Sequence record: OM870969.1
Reading direction: 5' to 3' (one strand)
DNA length: 64,000 bases
Source of the DNA: Pseudomonas phage vB_Paer_PsCh
A program made the translations under genes and the position numbers. Numbering within the stretch: position 1 is the stretch's first letter; each line of letters starts with the position of its first letter. The notes below the pieces were generated by a model, which worked only from the letters and a program-made list of their open reading frames with translations, was not told where the DNA came from and ran no database searches. Positions 54,551 through 64,000 of the stretch are shown here, in pieces.

Positions 54551-54578
54551 ACGGGAGGAATACGAGGCGATCTAAGCT

Positions 54579-54735
54579 AGGGACCGGATGGATTTTTAGG
54601 GACTGGATAGATTTTCACAGACTGCAAAATTGAGAACTGGGCAGATTTTTAGGAACTGGACAGTTTTTCACAGAAGGGGATTTTTCTACAGAGGAATTTC
54701 CCCTGAAATTTAGCCGGATTTCTCAGAAGGGCGGA
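54579..54735. repeat. iteron-like direct repeat cluster
   Basis: Two about 36-bp units, GGATGGATTTTTAGGGACTGGATAGATTTTCACAGA (54586-54621) and GGGCAGATTTTTAGGAACTGGACAGTTTTTCACAGA (54638-54674), plus further degenerate ATTTTTmrG copies. Confidence 0.6.
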
Positions 54736-54737
54736 TC

Positions 54738-54785
54738 GTTAGCAGGCTATCTAATTGGTTAGCAAGCTACCTTTAATCGTTAGCA
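54738..54785. repeat. three phased GTTAGCA direct repeats
   Basis: GTTAGCA at 54738, 54758 and 54779, a 20-21 bp periodicity. Confidence 0.5.
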
Positions 54786-54931
54786 CACTAACTAAAAATT
54801 CCTAGGACGGACCTCAGTTGGCACGAACGTTGCAAGCCCGCACCAGTTTCCCGGGCAGGCGTAGGCCTCGACTATCCGTCGTGAAGGCGATATGTAGTTG
54901 GGGACTCGCACCCCGCGTTTAAGATGCGCCC

Positions 54932-54959
54932 ATTCTACTATGACAGTTCACTTTGTCAA
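54932..54959 (-). promoter_or_regulatory. consensus sigma70-like promoter directed leftward into the repeat hub
   Basis: Minus strand: TTGACA (complement of 54954-59), 16-nt spacer, TAGAAT (complement of 54932-37). Confidence 0.45.
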
Positions 54960-55139
54960 CATTCTTTTTATGGCACAGGTTTTGCAATTGCAATTAGAGT
55001 GCCAACATAAATTTCAGGCTCCTCCGGTGTTTATCTCCGGTGCTCGGCTTCCAGCCTGCGTTGCCCGCATGCCTATGATTATACACAAGCCAGAAAAGAA
55101 GACAAGCAAAAATATAGAGAAAAATCTACATAAAGCCGG

Positions 55140-55169
55140 TTGACACGTTCTTTTTATATAGGCACAATG
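55140..55169 (+). promoter_or_regulatory. possible sigma70-like promoter
   Basis: TTGACA (55140-45) with a weak -10 (CACAAT at 18-nt spacing). Confidence 0.3.
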
Positions 55170-55203
55170 AGCCCACATTCAACGGAACGGCAGGTAAACA
55201 GCC

Positions 55204-55677
55204 ATGCTACATAGTGAAGCCCGGGAGATCGCACTACAGGAAATGGACAAGTGGAGCCTCCTTGAGCAAGGTTGGAAATTCTCGTTCAACCTGCGGTTGA
55301 AGAGGGCTCTAGGGCGGTGCAATTACGCTAAGAGGCTCATAGAACTCAGCTACGATTACGTAGCTAATAACGGGCTTCCCGCAGTACTGGACACCATCCG
55401 CCACGAAATAGCACATGCTAAGGCAGGTCCGCACCATGGGCATGATTCTGTATGGAAAGAGTGGTGCGGATTGATTGGCGCTAAACCTAATCAGTACGCC
55501 AGTACAAAGGACAAAGTAGTCGACTTTCCTTGGCGGCTGGCGATCCGGCACGAAGATGGCACATTAGAGCCGCTGAATCATTTCGGTTTCAGGCGGACCA
55601 ACATGGCGAGAAAACAGGTACGCGGGCGTCCTGAGACGCTGGGCCGTCTAGTTTGGGTGAAGAACGAAAATAATTGA
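55204..55677 (+). CDS. SprT-like zinc metalloprotease domain protein
   Basis: 157 aa. HExxH motif IRHEIAHA within a SprT-like arrangement (GRC..IELS..HEIAH..). Confidence 0.5.
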   Translation: MLHSEAREIALQEMDKWSLLEQGWKFSFNLRLKRALGRCNYAKRLIELSYDYVANNGLPAVLDTIRHEIAHAKAGPHHGHDSVWKEWCGLIGAKPNQYASTKDKVVDFPWRLAIRHEDGTLEPLNHFGFRRTNMARKQVRGRPETLGRLVWVKNENN

Positions 55678-55686
55678 GAAAAAGAT

Positions 55687-55714
55687 GTTGACAGCTTAGG
55701 CCATTCCTGTAGAA
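55687..55714 (+). promoter_or_regulatory. repeated early promoter element copy 1 (TTGACA-16-TAGAAT with GGCCATTC/GAATGGCC palindrome)
   Basis: TTGACAGCTTAGGCCATTCCTGTAGAATGGCCCTCAAGC. Confidence 0.6.
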
Positions 55715-55766
55715 TGGCCCTCAAGCAAAGGGAAACACCCTGAGCAGTCACAAAGGATACATAGAT

Positions 55767-56033
55767 ATGAAAGCGCTTTGTAATCATCGGGCACTCTATG
55801 CGGCTTACAACCGCAGCGAGATTGATCGAGTTGCATTAGACCTGAACCGTTATTTTCCTATCGAGAAAGATGACGAATGGGAAGACGGACCATACATGTA
55901 TCGTCGCCGCACCTATCTGGTGAAGCATTCGAAGGGCACAGCCCGGTGGCACAGTCTTTACTGTAATGGGACTGTCCAAGGCGTAGGCGTCGTCTTCGAC
56001 GTAAAGTCGGGCGAACCTTTCCGCACAGCATAA
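55767..56033 (+). CDS. hypothetical protein
   Basis: 88 aa, RBS AAAGGA. Confidence 0.45.
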   Translation: MKALCNHRALYAAYNRSEIDRVALDLNRYFPIEKDDEWEDGPYMYRRRTYLVKHSKGTARWHSLYCNGTVQGVGVVFDVKSGEPFRTA

Positions 56034-56047
56034 AGGAGATTCAGAAA

Positions 56048-56191
56048 ATGCAAGCTTGGGATGTGTATCAGAACGGCCAATTGATCGATACTGTTTTCTT
56101 CGATATCATGTGTGATGCCGAAGAGGTGCGGAAATCGCTGGTCAACCATGACGGGTATCCGTCTGATATCACTGTGGAGGAGGCCGAGTAA
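56048..56191 (+). CDS. small hypothetical protein
   Basis: 47 aa with strong RBS AAGGAGA. Under 60 aa, so not in the ORF track. Confidence 0.3.
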   Translation: MQAWDVYQNGQLIDTVFFDIMCDAEEVRKSLVNHDGYPSDITVEEAE

Positions 56192-56478
56192 TGGATAACC
56201 TGTCCGTTAAAATCGTTCTGTCGGAACTCAGCTACAAAGCCTTGATTCAAGCCTTCGCCTTGCTTGGCCGAACGCTCGACCTAGACGAGGGGTTGGACGA
56301 TATACTTAATCTTATTGCGGATGAGATCGCTTTCCGCGACGGCCTGCCGCCTTTCGCAGACGACTGCGATAAAACAGAATGGATGCTCCGTCGATGGGAA
56401 TCGCTCCCGGTGGTATCGTACAATATCGGGCAGGACGGACCGATTGTCGCTCGGTCTATCGAAGTAAAAACGGCATGA
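56191..56478 (+). CDS. hypothetical protein
   Basis: 95-aa acidic ORF with a TAATG overlap with the upstream gene. Confidence 0.45.
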   Translation: MDNLSVKIVLSELSYKALIQAFALLGRTLDLDEGLDDILNLIADEIAFRDGLPPFADDCDKTEWMLRRWESLPVVSYNIGQDGPIVARSIEVKTA

Positions 56479-56489
56479 GGGGAGAACTG

Positions 56490-56723
56490 ATGACCGTCAG
56501 AGTAGGAGATATCGTGGCTATCCGGGGCGACATTCGGAAAAAGCTCGACGGAACGTGCCAATACACGCCCGAACAATTGGTAGGTGGTAAGTTCCTCAAG
56601 CATGCCGGCACGGGAGAAATATGGACTGGCCGAGTGAGTAAGATACAAGGTGATATGGCCAAGGTGGGAGGGGCTTGGCGCGGGATCGAATTCTATGTGC
56701 TGGTTGACGAAATAAACGCTTGA
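56490..56723 (+). CDS. hypothetical protein
   Basis: 77 aa from ATG 56490 (RBS GAGGGGAGA). Confidence 0.4.
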   Translation: MTVRVGDIVAIRGDIRKKLDGTCQYTPEQLVGGKFLKHAGTGEIWTGRVSKIQGDMAKVGGAWRGIEFYVLVDEINA

Positions 56724-56747
56724 CAACCTGACCCACTAGCTGCAAAA
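56719..56747 (+). promoter_or_regulatory. sigma70-like promoter
   Basis: TTGACA (56719-24), 17-nt spacer, CAAAAT. Confidence 0.4.
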
Positions 56748-56793
56748 TAGCACTCACAGACAACGAAGACGCCGATAGGCGAGGAGAAAGCAG

Positions 56794-56921
56794 ATGCAAA
56801 TGTTTTTCAAAACCCGCACCCAAGCCCGTGCAATGGCCACCAACGGTCGCAAAGTGGTAGACAACGGGGCTCAAGCTGAAAAGCGCTGGGCTGTCAAGCT
56901 GAACAAAAAGGAGGCGAAATA
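56794..56921 (+). CDS. small basic protein
   Basis: 42 aa, RBS GAGGAGAAAG. Under 60 aa. Confidence 0.3.
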
Positions 56922-57230
56922 ATGGCTAAGTCTGTCAGTGTAGATCGCAAGCGTTCCATCCTCGACGAGGCGAAAGACGGTAGCTTTTTCAGTGTGGAAT
57001 TCGTCAAGGCAGACGGCACCGTTCGAAAGATGACGTGCAAGCGCCAGATTAAATCGGCGTATGCTAACGGACAGTATGCCACTCGCAAACCGACCAGCGC
57101 TGGCAAGCCGCACCTGTATACCGCTGCTGAGGTGCTGAACATGGAAGAGGGTAAATCCGCTTTCCGTACGATCAATCTCGAAACCCTTATCCGTGCGAAG
57201 GTGAACGGAATCGAGTATAAATTCGATTAA
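56922..57230 (+). CDS. hypothetical protein
   Basis: 102 aa with a TAATG overlap and RBS AAGGAGG. Confidence 0.45.
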   Translation: MAKSVSVDRKRSILDEAKDGSFFSVEFVKADGTVRKMTCKRQIKSAYANGQYATRKPTSAGKPHLYTAAEVLNMEEGKSAFRTINLETLIRAKVNGIEYKFD

Positions 57231-57234
57231 AAGC

Positions 57235-57262
57235 TTGACAGCCTAGGCCATTCCTGTAGAAT
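57235..57262 (+). promoter_or_regulatory. repeated early promoter element copy 2
   Basis: TTGACAGCCTAGGCCATTCCTGTAGAATGGCCCTCAAGC. Confidence 0.6.
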
Positions 57263-57299
57263 GGCCCTCAAGCGAGACAACAACCTAAGAGGCTATACA

Positions 57300-57512
57300 G
57301 TGAAACAAGGTACTGATTTGATCGCTAAAGCAAATTTCACCGCCCGACTCCCGGGAGCTAAGCGGGGGATTTCGGTCAAGCCGGGAGATAAATTCTGGGT
57401 AACTACTCCGTCCTACAGTAACACCGATTTCGTAGGCGTAGCGAGGAAAGGCAAAACAACCTCCTACCTTTTCACTGCTAAGGATGTACAAACTCTTTTC
57501 GAAGCAGTATAA
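57300..57512 (+). CDS. hypothetical protein (GTG start)
   Basis: 70 aa from GTG 57300 with RBS AAGAGG 7 nt upstream. The ORF-track ATG at 57261 lies inside the promoter -10/palindrome and is unlikely. Confidence 0.4.
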   Translation: MKQGTDLIAKANFTARLPGAKRGISVKPGDKFWVTTPSYSNTDFVGVARKGKTTSYLFTAKDVQTLFEAV

Positions 57513-57559
57513 CCTTCAGACCCACTCAACCAACGCTTGACAATACAGGAGATTTAAAA

Positions 57560-57706
57560 TGGCACGTTCTATCAAGGCTTCCGACTTCGATTCCGCTTAC
57601 CAGTTCGAGGCCGCCAAACGTTCCGAACGTAAAGAGTCCCGCAAATCGCGTGACAATCGCAAAGCGAGCCGAGGCCGAGCTTTCGACTTCAGTAGCGATA
57701 TGTAAG
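57560..57706 (+). CDS. small basic protein
   Basis: 48 aa, RBS CAGGAGA. Lys/Arg/Ser-rich; under 60 aa. Confidence 0.3.
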
Positions 57707-57941
57707 GTTTGTGCCCTGCCGGCAGGCTTAAATGCCGGCAATCCTAAGCCCATTCGTCGAGTGGTTTTAGGATTCTCAACCCCAGCGGAGATACCAAAAA
57801 TGGTTCGTCAATGCGTACCGTGTCCCGATGCTCGCCATGCTTTTTGCCTTGCATGGTTGTTCGCCATGCCGGAGTTCGCCGGTCTGCCTGCTCAAAAGGA
57901 CATAAAACTCTTTAAGACTTCGGGACAGTGGGCGGTATGTT

Positions 57942-58325
57942 ATGGCTAGACGGCAGCGGCTCCCGTCGTGGGTTCAAGACCAGACCGAGGATGAAACGCC
58001 GCTGAGGGATAGGATAGACCCCTACCTTAGCAAGCTTGGCGAAGTCGATAAGCTAGAGGGACAATTGCGACGGGTCAGGGATGCAACGGACCCGGACGAA
58101 TACAACGAAATGGCTAAGGTACTAAAAGCCCGACGCCGGAAGATAATGAAGCAACGTGCCCGGGCCTACGGTCTGCCAGAGGATGAGCCTACCAATGTCC
58201 AAGGGTACAGCGTACCGGAAGAGGTTCACCGTAGAGCCATCCTGTTAAGCAGTGTAAAACCTTGGATGTTCTGGACCATCCTGTCTTTCTCGATTTTTGT
58301 GTGGTTTGTTTTGAAAAACAGTTGA
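57942..58325 (+). CDS. membrane-anchored protein
   Basis: 127 aa. Basic N-terminal part and a C-terminal TM helix (WMFWTILSFSIFVWFVL). Confidence 0.45.
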   Translation: MARRQRLPSWVQDQTEDETPLRDRIDPYLSKLGEVDKLEGQLRRVRDATDPDEYNEMAKVLKARRRKIMKQRARAYGLPEDEPTNVQGYSVPEEVHRRAILLSSVKPWMFWTILSFSIFVWFVLKNS

Positions 58326-58349
58326 CAAGGTTCCCGCCTCCTGTAGAAT
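58322..58349 (+). promoter_or_regulatory. early promoter (degenerate copy of the repeated element)
   Basis: TTGACAAGGTTCCCGCCTCCTGTAGAATGG. Confidence 0.5.
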
Positions 58350-58400
58350 GGTCAGCAAGAAAGGCGGACAGGCCGCCTAGCTAGACAAAGGACAACCGTC

Positions 58401-59072
58401 ATGAACTTCACTCTCAATCTCGTTTCCAAAAACAGCAAAACTGGTCCCATGCCTGTCAGCACGTCTCATAACGGCACCTGCCCGGATGCCTGCCCTCTCA
58501 AGGCTAAAGGCTGCTATGCCGCTTATGGGCCTACTGCTATTCACTGGAAAAAGCTAAGCAAGGGTGAACGTGGCGTAGAGTGGAAAGAGTTCCTTAAGCA
58601 AGTGCGGTCTATCTCCCGTGGGGATTTGTGGCGTCATAATCAAGCTGGCGATCTCGTGGGTCAGGATGACGTTATCGATGGGATCGCCCTGATGGAACTG
58701 GTGAAAGCTAACAAAGGGCGTCGAGGCTTCACCTATACGCACTACCCGATGAACAATTTCATGAACCGCCAGCACGTATTGTCGGCCAATCGTAGCGGCT
58801 TCACTATCAACCTGTCGGGCAACAATGTAGCGCACGCCGATGAACTGGCCGACCTGAACATCGCCCCTGTAGTGACTATTCTCCCGATGGACGCGGAGAA
58901 TGTAAGCTTTACGCCGAAAGGACGTAAAGTGGTAGCTTGTCCGGCTGAGAAAAGCGACAAGGTGAATTGTAAGTCGTGCGGCTTGTGCCAAGTGGCCGAC
59001 CGGGAGTATATTATCGGCTTCCGTGCCCACGGCACAGCAAAGAAAACTGTCGATCTCATTGCTAAGGGTTAA
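58401..59072 (+). CDS. Cys-rich protein, possibly phage Gp37/Gp68 (DUF5131)-like
   Basis: 223 aa. N-terminal GTCPDACPLKAKGCYAAYGP and C-terminal CKSCGLC cysteine clusters. Confidence 0.4.
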   Translation: MNFTLNLVSKNSKTGPMPVSTSHNGTCPDACPLKAKGCYAAYGPTAIHWKKLSKGERGVEWKEFLKQVRSISRGDLWRHNQAGDLVGQDDVIDGIALMELVKANKGRRGFTYTHYPMNNFMNRQHVLSANRSGFTINLSGNNVAHADELADLNIAPVVTILPMDAENVSFTPKGRKVVACPAEKSDKVNCKSCGLCQVADREYIIGFRAHGTAKKTVDLIAKG

Positions 59073-59076
59073 CACA

Positions 59077-59415
59077 ATGGACGAATCTGTTTACGCACCA
59101 TTCAATCAGTGTAAGATGATGGGCCTAGAACGAACCGTGCGGAGCCTAGCGGCTCCAAACGGATGCAAGGTAGTCTTGTATCAGGATCACAAGAACAAGC
59201 ACAGAATTGTCGTATATGACGCTCTAGGGCAGGGTATGTCCGGGGTCATGGTGCAAGCAGATGGGGAGATTCATTACAAGGAAACTCGCAAGGCTAGCCA
59301 AGGGCAAAACCTGACAAGGCAACTACAAGCCCAACTGACCGCATGGGGAGTGAAGTGGTTTCCCTCTCAGTATCAGACAACGGCAGGTGCGGCTTGCTAC
59401 AAAGGAGACCGGTAA
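59077..59415 (+). CDS. hypothetical protein
   Basis: 112 aa from ATG 59077. Confidence 0.4.
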   Translation: MDESVYAPFNQCKMMGLERTVRSLAAPNGCKVVLYQDHKNKHRIVVYDALGQGMSGVMVQADGEIHYKETRKASQGQNLTRQLQAQLTAWGVKWFPSQYQTTAGAACYKGDR

Positions 59416-59783
59416 TGCGACAGCTTAATAAATCCCAGCTAAAGGCCTTGGGGCCTAAGATCGATCTAGCTCTAGAGTTAGCCGCGACTGGTCGAGGTGA
59501 ACTAATGAATGGCTACGGCTCTACCTGCTACATTTCAAACAAGGCTGGCCATAATATCCTTCGAGTGAGCTACCATAACTCCCGATTCGTTGTGTACGGT
59601 AACGAGAGCGTCCGGGTTACCGGGACCGCCTTGCAGGCTTGGATGGAGTGGAAAGGCATTAATCTGGCAGCCATCGCGTCTGTTAGTGAGTATGGGTATC
59701 ATCCTAACCTGAGCATCGGTCACAATGACGCTCTTAAGACTCTCAAGGCTATTGAGAGCTACCAACGGGAGCCCGTCCAGTGA
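59415..59783 (+). CDS. hypothetical protein
   Basis: 122 aa from ATG 59415 (RBS AAAGGAGA). Confidence 0.45.
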   Translation: MRQLNKSQLKALGPKIDLALELAATGRGELMNGYGSTCYISNKAGHNILRVSYHNSRFVVYGNESVRVTGTALQAWMEWKGINLAAIASVSEYGYHPNLSIGHNDALKTLKAIESYQREPVQ

Positions 59784-60052
59784 CGGCCTCCTACTCCGTA
59801 GACAAGCGGGGACAGCGCTGGGCTGTTATCCGAACGGAACTCAGCTTTCGAGGTGAAAGAGTCACCGTGATGGGGTTTTGTGTAGACCGGGCCCATGCTC
59901 TGAAAACGGTAGCCAAATTCAAAGCTTGGCAAGCGCAAGGCTGGCCCTACACTCTGAAAGACGACAGAAAAATAAAGCTTGACAGCTTAGGCCATTCCTG
60001 TAGAATGGCCCTCAAGCAAGACAAACCAGCCATCAGGAGGCTAGAAAAATGA
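59780..60052 (+). CDS. hypothetical protein (3' end carries an embedded promoter copy)
   Basis: 90-aa ORF with an ATGA overlap. Codons for LDSLGHSCRMALKQ coincide with promoter element copy 3. Confidence 0.4.
   Translation: MTASYSVDKRGQRWAVIRTELSFRGERVTVMGFCVDRAHALKTVAKFKAWQAQGWPYTLKDDRKIKLDSLGHSCRMALKQDKPAIRRLEK
59979..60006 (+). promoter_or_regulatory. repeated early promoter element copy 3
   Basis: TTGACAGCTTAGGCCATTCCTGTAGAATGGCCCTCAAGCAAGACAAACC. Confidence 0.55.
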
Positions 60053-60243
60053 AAGCTGTAGCTCAGTTCAAAAGTGAAGATTACGCAAGCGGTGATAGCC
60101 GCACTGCCACCGTTTACGAAGACGTTTATGGCTGCTACATCGTGAGCGTTTTCGGAACTAGCTTGAGCGAACCCATTGCCTTCCATTGGGGCCCGTTCGA
60201 GGATAAAGAATCCGCAATCGATGGCGCTAAGTCTGCTATCTAA
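60049..60243 (+). CDS. hypothetical protein
   Basis: 64 aa, RBS AGGAGG. Confidence 0.45.
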   Translation: MKAVAQFKSEDYASGDSRTATVYEDVYGCYIVSVFGTSLSEPIAFHWGPFEDKESAIDGAKSAI

Positions 60244-60260
60244 TCAAAAGGGACTACAGA

Positions 60261-60575
60261 ATGAAAATCTCCGCTATCCTGAAAAACAACCTGAAGTTTT
60301 ACAAGAACAATTCGTTCATGTGCGGTCTGGTGACCGACTACGGCGGTATTTCGTGCTGCGAGTCAATGAAAGCCAAGGAGTTTATTCAGGGTTTGTTAGG
60401 GCGCTATGCCACCTTGCACGCTAAGCTTATGAAAGAGGTGCCGGGTTACGAAAGAGCCGTATATGATGATGAGCTAGAGAGTGAATACTCCTTCTTTGTA
60501 TCGGATAGGGCCTATCAGATGCGTTGCTTGTGGTGGGAAACCGTCATTGCACAGCTAGAGGAACAAGGGAAATGA
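60261..60575 (+). CDS. hypothetical protein
   Basis: 104-aa ORF. Confidence 0.45.
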
Positions 60576-60796
60576 CTCAAGCTAACTGGAGCAAAGGCGT
60601 CCGGGTTGTCGGCGGAAAGCGGGACGGTGAGATTACCCTGTTCACAAGCGCTCACTTCAGCGAGGCGCTGGGAATGTCAGGCGGCGACCCTGAACTGGTG
60701 GAAGCTCTGCCCATGCCTGCGGCGCTTCGTTTGCTGGTCAAATGGAACAAACTATGCCGACAAATGAAGCTTGACTACCGCTACGAACTGCTGTAG
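60572..60796 (+). CDS. hypothetical protein
   Basis: 74 aa from ATG 60572 with an ATGA overlap. Confidence 0.4.
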
Positions 60797-60828
60797 GCTA
60801 CAGTCTCAATCAGAACAGGAATGAACCA

Positions 60829-61095
60829 ATGTCGATTCTAGCTCTAACCCTAACCCTTTGCTCTGCTGTCCAGTGTGACGACTACATTATCGATCACGCG
60901 CTCCCGGGACAAGCCGCAGAGTGCAATGCTCGGCTAGTGGAAGAGGCCGATGAGTTCGGTGATGCTTGGGTGGCGACTAATGCCGATACCCGCCTGACCC
61001 GATACCTTAGCCGATTCAATATTCAGGTTGACCCGCGCTTTGTTTTCGATTACGATTTCACCTGTCAACTGATCGCAGAGGATGAACTGCCATGA
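60829..61095 (+). CDS. hypothetical protein
   Basis: 88-aa ORF. Confidence 0.4.
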   Translation: MSILALTLTLCSAVQCDDYIIDHALPGQAAECNARLVEEADEFGDAWVATNADTRLTRYLSRFNIQVDPRFVFDYDFTCQLIAEDELP

Positions 61096-61484
61096 TCGCT
61101 CCACATATCACCAATAAACAATCGCAGCAACGCGCCGCCATCATCATTCGCCGAGTGAAATACTACGAAAGCCGCTGGCTGCGCACGGTGACTTTCTTCG
61201 TAGGAGAGTGCAGCGAGAATATAACCGAACGTTTCGCCTATCTGCGGCACGCCGAGGAGCAAATGACCAAGCTGAAGGCTGAGTTTGCAGCCTTCCCGGT
61301 AGAGCATCGGTTGAAGGCTCTCGGTTGGATCAACTGGAATACCTACAATGATGGCCTACTAGAGGAGTGGATTCACCCGGACAGTGACCGAGCCATCATG
61401 CTAGAGTATGACAGCACAACTTGGCGGCCAGAGGCTTGCTGGGAAACCAAGGTTGACTCACTCTCGAAACTAGCAATGCTGTAA
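61092..61484 (+). CDS. hypothetical protein
   Basis: 130-aa ORF with an ATGA overlap. Confidence 0.45.
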   Translation: MIAPHITNKQSQQRAAIIIRRVKYYESRWLRTVTFFVGECSENITERFAYLRHAEEQMTKLKAEFAAFPVEHRLKALGWINWNTYNDGLLEEWIHPDSDRAIMLEYDSTTWRPEACWETKVDSLSKLAML

Positions 61485-61487
61485 AAT

Positions 61488-61545
61488 AATGCCCGTCAGG
61501 CTGAAATAATGCTTGACGGGCGTTTTTGTACCTGTAGAATAGGCC
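61488..61545 (+). promoter_or_regulatory. composite terminator-promoter element
   Basis: Hairpin GCCCGTCAG-GCTGAAATAATGC-TTGACGGGC followed by GTTTTTGT. The descending arm contains the -35 TTGACG of a 16-nt-spaced TAGAAT promoter. Confidence 0.5.
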
Positions 61546-61598
61546 TCAAGAAAGGAAAACAGCCGAAAGGCTCAATCTGAAACCCGGAGATCGATAAA

Positions 61599-62183
61599 AT
61601 GCTGCTAGTTCATGGGACCACTGCAAAAGGCCTGAAAGCTATCATGAACCGTCAAGGCAAGGAAGGATTGGCCGCACCTTGGGACGTTTCGGATCATGAT
61701 GGAATGTCATACTTTTACAACGTGAACAAGGCTATGGAATGGCACGATGAAGAAGAGTATGCTAAAGCGGAATGCATTATCCGTTGCCTAGAACAGGCTC
61801 AATTACAGCAAGCTATGATGGCCGAAGGCGGTAAAATCTACGCTCTGGTTGTCGATATCCCCGAAGAGTTTCAGGACCGCGTAGAAGATGATTATTCGTG
61901 CCCTAACGCCAGTAATGAAGCTAGCTGTTTTCCAGAGGATAACTTTGATCCATCATGGATTGTAGAAGTGTATGAGGCAGAGGTGAGTGTATGGGCCATC
62001 CCTTTCATCGTAGCTGGAATCTCAGGTAATTCTATGTTCCAATCCCACCAACTACCTGACAAACTGGTGGCGATAGCGGAGTCGGTGGCACGGTCCAGTG
62101 ACATAGACACATACGAAGCTTTCGAGATAGACCATTCACAGGTGGAGCTGTCAATTCTCGAACATTTCAAAGATAACGCTTGA
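61599..62183 (+). CDS. hypothetical protein
   Basis: 194-aa acidic ORF, RBS GGAGA. Confidence 0.5.
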   Translation: MLLVHGTTAKGLKAIMNRQGKEGLAAPWDVSDHDGMSYFYNVNKAMEWHDEEEYAKAECIIRCLEQAQLQQAMMAEGGKIYALVVDIPEEFQDRVEDDYSCPNASNEASCFPEDNFDPSWIVEVYEAEVSVWAIPFIVAGISGNSMFQSHQLPDKLVAIAESVARSSDIDTYEAFEIDHSQVELSILEHFKDNA

Positions 62184-62207
62184 CAGTCTAGCCACCTAGC
62201 GTAGAAT
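62180..62207 (+). promoter_or_regulatory. early promoter (degenerate copy)
   Basis: TTGACAGTCTAGCCACCTAGCGTAGAATGCCTAGCC. Confidence 0.5.
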
Positions 62208-62254
62208 GCCTAGCCAAGGGGTGCATAAGCGCCCCACTCAAAAGGATACAGAAA

Positions 62255-62500
62255 ATGGCCATCGTTGATCGAACCGCAGGTAATGAAAGCCCGAATCACT
62301 GCTACATCGTCACTGGTAGCATTGGACCAGAGTTTGAGCCGACTCTGTTCACTACCCATGCGCTGGCAAAGAAGTATGCTGAGCAGATAGTGAAATACGG
62401 CAAGGCAAATGATGTTTTCCCGCCTTTTACGCCTGTTATCGAGACTCGCCACAAGGCGGATATGCATCGGTTCACCATTCACAACAAAATCCCCGAATAG
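62255..62500 (+). CDS. hypothetical protein
   Basis: 81-aa ORF. Confidence 0.45.
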   Translation: MAIVDRTAGNESPNHCYIVTGSIGPEFEPTLFTTHALAKKYAEQIVKYGKANDVFPPFTPVIETRHKADMHRFTIHNKIPE

Positions 62501-62511
62501 GAGACGTATCT

Positions 62512-62841
62512 ATGAAACTTTCTGAAATTTTCCAAAAAGGCCTGAACTATGCAATTGAGTACGGAATGCCGTGGTATATGTGCATCCGTCTCCGGGAGAT
62601 TCATTTGTTCCCCTCGCCCGTTGAAATGGCAGTTAACTCGGTCATGATGTCTGCCGGTATCTCATCAACCCCAGAGGGATGCGAATTCGCCGGCGTTGAT
62701 GACTATTTCGAGGAAAGCGGCCTAGCAGCCGCATACAAAATGAACAATCAGGAAATGTCCGAATACGGGCGCTCATCCTACGCAATGTGGGTGCAATTTT
62801 GGTTCTTCGTAATCTTTGACTTAGCCCGAAAAGGGCAGTAG
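62512..62841 (+). CDS. hypothetical protein
   Basis: 109 aa, RBS AGGAGA. Confidence 0.45.
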   Translation: MKLSEIFQKGLNYAIEYGMPWYMCIRLREIHLFPSPVEMAVNSVMMSAGISSTPEGCEFAGVDDYFEESGLAAAYKMNNQEMSEYGRSSYAMWVQFWFFVIFDLARKGQ

Positions 62842-62876
62842 AATAGCCGGCAGATAATGTGATCTAAGGGACGATC

Positions 62877-63338
62877 ATGAAAGACAAGACTGTAGTTTAT
62901 CGAATCGAGTGCAAGAACGGCGAGGGCCCTTATGTTAACGGGTGCATGACGAATTCGTCTTCCACTCCAGAGCGGCCTGTCCCTGAGCATGACGGGATAC
63001 CAGATGTTCGCTATTTTGAGTTCTTCGCCTTCACGTCCCCTAGGCAGCTAGACGATTGGTTTGGCGATGAATACGATGTGCTGTCCTTCTATTCTACCGC
63101 ACGGATCAGAGTCTATGAGGTAGACAAGCAACATGTAAGAGTCGGCATCCGGCAATGTGTATTCCGCAAGGCGGAAGCTGATTGCGTCCAAGAGGTGAGC
63201 ATAGACCAATGGGTTAGCATGGTACGCGCCGGACTATTGTCCGCCTCGGTCACACAAACTGTAGCTCCACGTCCTACCGAGCAATTGTCCCTAGACCTAG
63301 GGATGACTCGGCCTGCGAAGCTTCGAAAGAAATTTTGA
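62877..63338 (+). CDS. hypothetical protein
   Basis: 153-aa ORF. Confidence 0.45.
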   Translation: MKDKTVVYRIECKNGEGPYVNGCMTNSSSTPERPVPEHDGIPDVRYFEFFAFTSPRQLDDWFGDEYDVLSFYSTARIRVYEVDKQHVRVGIRQCVFRKAEADCVQEVSIDQWVSMVRAGLLSASVTQTVAPRPTEQLSLDLGMTRPAKLRKKF

Positions 63339-63357
63339 AAATGTTCGGTCTGTAGGG

Positions 63358-63385
63358 TTGACAGCTTGGGCCATTCGCGTAGAAT
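63358..63385 (+). promoter_or_regulatory. repeated early promoter element copy 4
   Basis: TTGACAGCTTGGGCCATTCGCGTAGAATGGCCCTCAAGCAAGACAAACC. Confidence 0.55.
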
Positions 63386-63441
63386 GGCCCTCAAGCAAGA
63401 CAAACCGCCGGCAGGCAAAACCACAAACCCGGAGACTCACC

Positions 63442-63969: not shown

Positions 63970-64000
63970 TGCTTGACGGGGCCCGAAAAGGGCCCCATAA

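Follow-up and report, generated by a model that had tools for sequence, protein, structure and literature searches.

A selected palindrome in the early promoter repeat of Pseudomonas phage vB_Paer_PsCh and its likeness to promoter-early stem-loops

Promoter-early stem-loops (PeSLs) were described in the T4-like phages RB49/phi1, PST and nt-1 (Arbiol et al. 2010, PMC2839356; Comeau et al. 2014, PMC4122927). In RB49/phi1 they occur in hyperplastic regions rich in orphan genes, where they bring about modular shuffling, and one stem was shown to terminate transcription. A repeated promoter is also known from Pseudomonas phages. A 41-nt repeat with the motif TTGACA-N-TAgAAT, assigned to sigma70, was described in PAK_P1-like phages (5-6 copies per genome) and KPP10-like phages (2 copies), and it was confined to these two clades (Henry et al. 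2015, PLoS One 10:e0117163; PMC4309531). The repeat sits in a variable early region of about 11 kb, 32 of its 41 nt are strictly conserved, and the conservation around the hexamers was called "unusual" in that study. We analysed the copies of this repeat in Pseudomonas phage vB_Paer_PsCh (OM870969.1), where they carry an inverted repeat that reaches into the -10 hexamer. The window was a stretch of 64,000 nt of this phage, and coordinates given without a record label are positions in it.

The copies shared several features with PeSLs. The module is repeated and intergenic, it contains a consensus sigma70 early promoter behind an A/T-rich tract, and its stem-loop lies, as mostly in PeSLs, in the gap separating the -35 from the -10 or overlapping the -10, with G-T pairs tolerated. 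The A/T-rich tract holds the stop codon of the upstream gene, which belongs to the definition of a PeSL. In addition, the copies are clustered in a hyperplastic region of orphan genes, flank insertions and deletions among close relatives, and recombine with each other. The differences concern the lineage and host (a Pakpunavirus on Pseudomonas) and the stem, which contains A/T and is 8-9 bp long instead of polyG/polyC; moreover, only some of the modules have an embedded stem. The lambdoid morons (promoter, gene and terminator; discussed in Arbiol et al. 2010) are likewise small autonomous gene units that come and go between relatives. However, in the present case the repeated promoter itself is the recombination joint. 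Among the papers that a literature search found, none applied the PeSL concept to these phages. In Henry et al. (2015, PMC4309531) there was no mention of an inverted repeat, hairpin, stem or operator, and the repeats were not tied to cassette junctions beyond their placement in the variable region; the spacer was given as N17, whereas 16 nt were counted here. The repeat is thus already published, and its palindrome is a detail that is real and selected and has apparently gone unreported. The preliminary description of this DNA did not know of that publication, nor did it consider recombination between copies as a cause of their near-identity.

The window was assigned to Pakpunavirus, with 98.9% identity to Zigelbrucke and 93.5% to JG004. 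The identity to PAK_P1, JG004, phiMK and other Pakpunaviruses was 88-95%, and the coverage among relatives was 67-97%. A search for the element found it in 157 phage records at 730 places, all of them in Pseudomonas phages of Pakpunavirus or Nankokuvirus. The matches in metagenomes and viral contigs, obtained with a free-spacer pattern, were other promoter families. Transcription data were available from two relatives. RNA sequencing of PAK_P4 located the early region in the homologous part of the genome. ONT-cappable-seq, a cap-enriched long-read RNA sequencing method that maps transcript ends, showed that 78.7% of the mapped promoters of the Nankokuvirus PAK_P3 (KC862299.1) were sigma70-like (Putzeys et al. 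2024, PMC10914365). Those PAK_P3 promoters that were assayed needed no phage factors for their activity in E. coli and P. aeruginosa. The predicted promoter function of the copies is well grounded from these relatives, in agreement with the earlier proposal of sigma70-type early promoters.

The 39-mer TTGACAGCTTAGGCCATTCCTGTAGAATGGCCCTCAAGC was found on the plus strand at 55688 (no mismatch), 57235 (one), 59979 (none) and 63358 (three), and the chance expectation from shuffled sequence was none. These copies, named S1 to S4, were exactly the four in the window with the perfect 8-bp inverted repeat GGCCATTC-N5-GAATGGCC. A perfect 8-bp inverted repeat with a loop of 3-8 nt was present in 0.54% of random 45-nt segments of the window. 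The near-identity of the four copies and the inverted repeat had been noted in the preliminary description and were confirmed, with the start of the first copy moved from 55687 to 55688. The left arm lies in the spacer (-22 to -15), and the right arm consists of the last four bases of the -10 (TAGAAT) and the discriminator GGCC (-9 to -2). The spacer between -35 and -10 was 16 nt, and the hexamers matched the consensus at 11 of 12 positions. The four copies span 55.7-63.4 kb of the window, and complete relatives have 5-7. In the tract upstream of the -35, the share of A or T at positions -8 to -3 was about 80-100% among 57 copies, with the lowest value at -5 (G in 11 of 57). The stop codons of the preceding genes are located 4-20 nt upstream of the -35; S1 begins 10 nt past the stop of the SprT-like gene 55204..55677.

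The leader downstream of the promoter had been described as conserved in three copies. The exact sequence CAAGCAAGACAAACC was shared by two of them, S3 and S4, while S2 had CAAGCGAGACAACAACC, which is two positions off, and S1 had CAAGCAAAGGGAAACACCC instead. The leader CAAGCAAG(A/G)CAA(A/C) (60013-60030, 63392-63409) was also observed on palindrome-free promoters and in unrelated metagenomic phage contigs with quite different spacers (TCAAGCAAGGCAACAAACCAACCGGAGAGAC); the places outside the window were L002 1016, 5618 and 9333, and L029, L003, L019, L032 and L033. The start region and the leader are thus conserved whether or not the palindrome is present. The leader may serve promoter escape, act as an unstructured C/A-rich translation leader, or have another role. 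Another observation concerned the invariant start motif TCAAGC, which is the reverse complement of GCTTGA, formed by the -35 and the GC on its 5' side. In S3, GCTTGA (59977-59982) pairs with TCAAGC (60012-60017), and the whole core promoter was predicted to fold into a two-helix hairpin of -18.2 kcal/mol (z = -2.9). Pairing between the -35 side and the start side was seen in several promoters, reaching 12 bp in PAK_P3 promoter_11 (L002 9333-9378) and 11 bp (TTGACCATTCT/AGAATGGTCAA) in an unrelated viral contig of 104 kb (L005 7456).

Selection on the palindrome was analysed in 19 genomes of both genera, which gave 78 palindrome-class copies and, among these, 33 distinct 42-mers. The -35, the -10, the G at -13 and the start region TCAAGCAA were invariant in all 78 copies. 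Polymorphisms were frequent just ahead of the left arm (9 and 11), in the loop (20 and 21), directly behind the right arm (33) and from 42 onward, so that the polymorphic positions bracket the arms exactly (11 | 12-19 | 20-21 | 25-32 | 33). With the bases of the -10 hexamer left aside, polymorphism affected one of 12 positions in the arms, compared to six of the nine other non-hexamer positions (Fisher p = 0.016, Mann-Whitney p = 4e-4). The loop, with seven variants, was the most polymorphic part of the element. The arms were almost invariant, with the variants GGCCGTTC in six copies and GGCCATTG and TAATGGCC in one copy each. The sole recurrent arm change, A to G in GGCCGTTC, keeps a G-U/G-T pair on the plus strand. 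Between the window and PAK_P3, the element was 94-96% identical, whereas the best coding DNA of the region was 73-85% identical and most of it was unalignable. Since the arms are nearly invariant while the loop and flanks vary freely, the conclusion holds, as judged from these substitution patterns, that the palindrome is under selection beyond recognition by RNA polymerase. This supported a claim that had already been made from the single genome. An extension of the stem was also considered. An outer helix GCTT/AAGC was predicted by folding, but it was rejected because T9 to C is frequent without compensation, and positions 11 and 33 occurred in all four combinations (A/C, G/C, A/A, G/A) without covariation.

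Folding was predicted for the inverted repeat as RNA and as DNA. As RNA it gave -15.2 to -19.1 kcal/mol with z = -4 to -5, and as DNA it gave -8.6 kcal/mol with z = -3.7. Significant stems in the core promoter were present in three unrelated classes. These were the palindrome class (z = -2.9 to -3.7), the class of the promoter at 63973 (z = -3.3), and PAK_P3 promoter_11, which has a 12-bp inverted repeat TTGACGGGGGTC...GACCCCCGTCAA (z = -5.7). The stem of the 63973 class was conserved in all Pakpunaviruses examined, with a loop change in Zigelbrucke and a C to T change in MAG1 that keeps a U-G pair. The whole 95-nt promoter modules folded no better than the background. The idea that every promoter module has an embedded stem was rejected, as only 3 of about 17 promoter classes were significant.

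Comparison of genomes showed junctions in or beside the copies. In the Nankokuvirus PS24, a single chimeric copy takes the place of two PAK_P3 copies that lie 2.47 kb apart. Upstream, the identity of PS24 to PAK_P3 was 98.2% as far as the copy at L002 7986, and downstream it was 98.7%, beginning with the copy at L002 10502. These alignments share exactly the 42-nt repeat; therefore, a crossover within the repeat led to the loss or gain of the 2.47-kb block (gp100-gp105). In phiMK, B8, PAK_P2 and Pa-U, S4 is followed by a tandem copy S5 with a gene of 171 amino acids between them, whereas the window is without this gene and S5. The S4 leader of the window (63392-63441) is a fusion of the S4 and S5 leaders with the junction in their shared part. 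In SPA01, 1 kb is missing from just upstream of the S1 -35 to the -35 of the promoter at 56720. In phiMK, B8 and PAK_P2, the homology breaks exactly after the TAGAAT of the promoter at 61513. An insertion of a 267-bp open reading frame (ORF), ending at 57512, follows right after the S2 leader from 57280 and is present in the window and phiMK only. A unit of the S4 promoter and a gp100-like gene is common to phiMK and PAK_P3, with the gene about 80-88% and the promoter and leader 93-95% identical, and the DNA upstream of it is unrelated. It had appeared that the S4 promoter stands ahead of unrelated genes in the two genera. This was ruled out, as the PAK_P3 gene behind S4 is conserved in phiMK and was lost from the window. 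In addition, MAG1 carries the haplotype GCCCG..G..GA, otherwise unique, in two paralogous slots, and B8 carries the same variant in three slots. Haplotypes shared across slots indicated conversion from copy to copy. The promoter modules make up 7.3% of the region and held clustered homology breakpoints in 10 of 42 cases (p = 7e-4). With the palindrome-class copies taken by themselves, the enrichment depends on the module width drawn. As judged from the junctions, the copies act as recombination joints for early gene cassettes.

We consider it probable, though by a modest degree of confidence, that the copies are PeSL-like composite cassettes of promoter and stem-loop that double as recombination joints. 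In this reading, each copy would be a strong host sigma70 promoter composed of the A/T-rich tract, TTGACA, the 16-nt spacer, TAGAAT, the G/C-rich discriminator and TCAAGCAA. From its sequence, and from experiments that concern the PAK_P3 promoters only, it would fire upon DNA entry and drive one small cassette of early genes. The copies are also near-identical direct repeats of 42 to about 70 nt. The genome comparisons showed that the intervening cassettes are deleted, inserted and swapped by homologous recombination between the copies, which also converts the copies and in this way shuffles the early genes and keeps the copies alike. The 8-9-bp inverted repeat would be a selected stem-loop, most likely acting in single-stranded form. 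By analogy and from the substitution patterns, it is probably an RNA hairpin at the 3' end of upstream read-through transcripts, where it might be an attenuator or a protective 3' end. All genes here have the same direction and their stop codons are just upstream, so that read-through transcripts would carry the hairpin right after the upstream gene.

Several results weigh against this reading. About 13 of the 17 promoter classes are without an unusual core fold, which makes the embedded stem a tendency and not a rule. The stem is short, at 8-9 bp, and is followed by CUCAAGCAAG with no U-run, and the terminator scan did not flag it; with CTCAAGCAAG after the stem, it differs from a canonical intrinsic (Rho-independent) terminator. 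PeSLs were defined in T4-like phages, where terminator activity was assayed and mini-circles (an ORF with a chimeric PeSL) are excised. No compensatory double changes of the arms were seen in the 78 copies. The arm sequence itself is conserved, beyond pairing, which leaves room for a sequence-specific reader. Compared to intergenic DNA in general, the breakpoints were not enriched in the modules (6 of 11 vs 46% expected). The statistics hold only against the whole region, and therefore the individual junctions carry the recombination argument.

Palindromic operators over the -10 are familiar from lac O1 (21 bp), the LexA boxes and the lambdoid OR/OL, and the element resembles them in that a dyad of about 21 bp, whose centre is free, covers the core promoter. 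The preliminary description had proposed such an operator for a dimeric protein. The 21-bp palindrome would then be bound as double-stranded DNA by a dimeric phage or host repressor that occludes the -10 and silences 4-7 palindrome-class promoters together. We regard this as doubtful, and it is less favoured than the PeSL-like reading. The perfect dyad over -22 to -2, with invariant arms, two variable bases in the central loop and variable arm flanks, is the pattern expected of two half-sites and suits an operator just as well as a stem-loop, and the sequence of the arms, beyond mere pairing, is conserved in two genera. The early genes of PAK_P3 and PAK_P4 are temporally down-regulated. Furthermore, SrpA, a small host protein of the XRE family, binds a palindrome in the Pakpunavirus K5 (You et al. 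2018, Nat Commun; PMC5945682). It is a palindromic regulatory site in the same phage genus, but it reads TATC-N-GATA, is located about 190 bp upstream of one gene, is an activator site and is not in early promoters. The search for a reader gave no support. In 65 proteins of the phage, of which 25 were early and the remaining 40 small or medium-sized, Pfam recognised neither a helix-turn-helix nor any other domain for DNA binding, a negative that does not cover novel folds; the matches were limited to SprT-like, DUF7449, DUF7227, a weak WYL_2, PDDEXK, RNA ligase, metallophosphatase and similar. The published annotation of the Pakpunavirus Adele notes no integrases or C repressors and names no transcriptional regulator. 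Among 185,579 bacterial species genomes, GGCCATTC-N5-GAATGGCC occurred at about the chance level, with at least 120 matches compared to about 139 expected; these were scattered and had 107 different loops, and P. aeruginosa was not among the 80 titles of matches listed. The recurrent variant GGCCGTTC breaks the dyad and keeps the RNA wobble pair. The other consensus early promoters (58322, 61513, 62180) do not have the site, so that a shut-off would only be partial. Other promoters carry unrelated stems at the place of the palindrome, which a single sequence-specific repressor cannot account for; several would be needed. A narrower version, in which the palindrome is an operator for a small DNA-binding protein, be it an early or middle phage protein of novel fold or a P. 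aeruginosa-specific factor, silencing the strongest early promoters of both genera together while the repeats double as shuffling joints, is unlikely in our view.

The symmetry might also be incidental, which we consider quite improbable. Strong promoters would have been homogenised by gene conversion, each arm would be kept for promoter kinetics, and the complementarity would have no function. The left arm would be the spacer, and the right arm would be the -10 with a G/C-rich discriminator, as in stringently controlled rRNA-type (ribosomal RNA) promoters with 16-nt spacers. This would fit the conversion visible in MAG1 and B8, the invariant blocks outside the palindrome (G at -13; TCAAGCAA at the start), the G-rich discriminator of palindrome-free promoters and the lack of compensatory change. 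However, the rarity of perfect 8-bp inverted repeats in random 45-mers argues for more than coincidence, as do the polymorphic positions that flank both arms exactly and the recurrence of independent stems in two other promoter classes. In addition, eight consecutive spacer bases are invariant in two genera, whereas the spacer sequence of sigma70 promoters normally has a weak effect. Finally, the palindrome could be a hot spot at the DNA level, with a hairpin, cruciform or recognition site at which cutting or pausing occurs during replication and actively drives cassette exchange. The junctions in or beside the repeats and the high polymorphism of the loop would agree with this. However, the crossovers occurred in the leader/TCAAGCAAG part (PS24, window) or at the -35/-10 and not specifically in the loop, ordinary homologous recombination between repeats of 42-70 nt is sufficient, and arms of 8 bp are short for cruciform extrusion. 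We consider such a hot spot very improbable.

Pakpunaviruses and Nankokuviruses are leading phage-therapy candidates against P. aeruginosa, and the early region, which holds the host-takeover genes, is the most variable part of their genomes. If the modules are cassette joints, also between genera, this would explain how the repertoire of takeover and anti-defence genes diversifies, and the PeSL mechanism would extend beyond T4-like phages. For phage engineering, the modules offer ready-made insertion points as well as strong, portable promoters. The coordinates of the features are listed in Table 1.

Table 1. Promoters, inverted repeats and early-gene matches in the early region of the window
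Feature	Position	Strand	Remarks
S1 promoter	55688..55729	+	TTGACA, 16-nt spacer, TAGAAT, discriminator GGCCC, start region TCAAGCAA
S1 inverted repeat	55699..55719		GGCCATTC-CTGTA-GAATGGCC
S2 promoter	57235..57276	+	4 nt past stop of ORF 56922..57230
S2 inverted repeat	57246..57266		
S3 promoter	59979..60020	+	leader extends to ATG at 60049
S3 inverted repeat	59990..60010		
S4 promoter	63358..63399	+	GCTTG variant, giving a 9-bp stem
S4 inverted repeat	63369..63389		loop GCGTA
Consensus promoter without palindrome	54959..54932	-	eighth one; conserved in phiMK and Ab02
Promoter-like site without palindrome	56720..56748	+	TTGACA-17-CAAAAT; right-hand junction of SPA01 deletion
Consensus promoter without palindrome	58322..58349	+	leader hairpin 58362-58378
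Promoter with terminator-like hairpin and T-run (61488-61529)	61513-61540	+	-35 TTGACG inside 3' arm of hairpin
Consensus promoter without palindrome	62180..62207	+	leader hairpin 62218-62235
Promoter TTGACT-17-TAGAAT	62816..62844	+	weak 4-bp spacer stem GCCC-GAAAA-GGGC, not significant alone
Promoter truncated by window end	63973..64000	+	TTGACG ... CATAAT; spacer filled by 7-bp G/C stem GGGGCCC-GAAAA-GGGCCCC
Early-gene Pfam match, SprT-like	55204-55677		E = 2.5e-12
Early-gene Pfam match, DUF7449	55767-56033		E = 2.4e-55
Early-gene Pfam match, WYL_2	56922-57230		E = 0.006, weak, below threshold
Early-gene Pfam match, DUF7227	58401-59072		E = 1.9e-107

In the case of the early genes, 20 of the 25 ORFs were without a Pfam match, and three others had only domains of unknown function or, for 56922, the weak sub-threshold match. 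The modules also cause annotation errors, both false gene starts (ATG in TAGAATGG) and read-through extensions. Within TAGAATGG every copy has an ATG, and at the -35 it has a TTG; therefore, ORF callers and the phiMK GenBank record place gene starts inside the promoter. In the window such ORF starts are at 57261 and 63358, the former in ORF 57261..57512. The true start of ORF 57261..57512 is probably the in-frame GTG at 57300 behind AAGAGG. A read-through extension was found at S3, which had been described as embedded in the 3' end of ORF 59780..60052. The read-through is real, and it is due to one extra A in an A-run (AAAAA vs AAAA) that is shared with Zigelbrucke and JG004. The counterpart in PAK_P2, PAK_P1 and phiMK has a TAA stop just before the -35, and that in B8 has a TGA within TTGA. 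The tail of 24 amino acids is thus a lineage-specific frameshift extension, and since the read-through stems from this extra A, the S3 element is ancestrally intergenic.

The promoters at 58322, 61513 and 62180 had been noted as degenerate relatives that keep TTGACA and TAGAAT with a 16-nt spacer. Their form TTGAC-N17-TAGAAT, without the palindrome, was confirmed for spacing and TAGAAT, while the -35 at 61513 was TTGACG and not TTGACA. The terminator-like hairpin and this promoter overlap tightly at 61488-61540. A T-run follows the hairpin, yet the terminator scan did not have it in its list. The discriminator was G-rich in the palindrome-free promoters as well. The 16-nt spacer, the G/C-rich discriminator and the A-rich upstream tract resemble stringently controlled promoters of the rRNA P1 type. 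For Pakpunaviruses, an alarmone hydrolase and a MazG-like enzyme have been reported. Early promoter activity could conceivably be linked to guanosine tetra- and pentaphosphate, (p)ppGpp. Several early leaders start with a hairpin rich in G/C, roughly from +8 to +30 (58362-58378, 62218-62235, and the small hairpin 55729-55741 in the S1 leader). These hairpins may be 5' stabilising stem-loops. Rfam gave no match in 53.5-64 kb, and no transfer RNAs were found in the window.

A gap of 630 bp without genes (54576-55203) lies directly upstream of S1 and contains the minus-strand promoter. This region also has three tandem repeats of 20-21 nt (ATCGTTAGCAGGCTATCTAA, 54735-54795) and, at 54572-54674, three to four repeats of the GGAACTGGACAGTTTTT type that resemble iterons. 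The gap could be a replication origin or a source of antisense or small RNA. Outside these phages, a search pattern that fixed TAGAAT and TCAAGCAAG, and only because of this, brought up an unrelated promoter in bog and soil metagenome contigs (L030 9978, L034 161, L035 7418). It has the palindrome ATTCTAC-ATC-GTAGAAT over the -10 and a second palindrome, TTCTACAGTGTAGAA, just past the start, an arrangement that resembles the classic two-operator layout.

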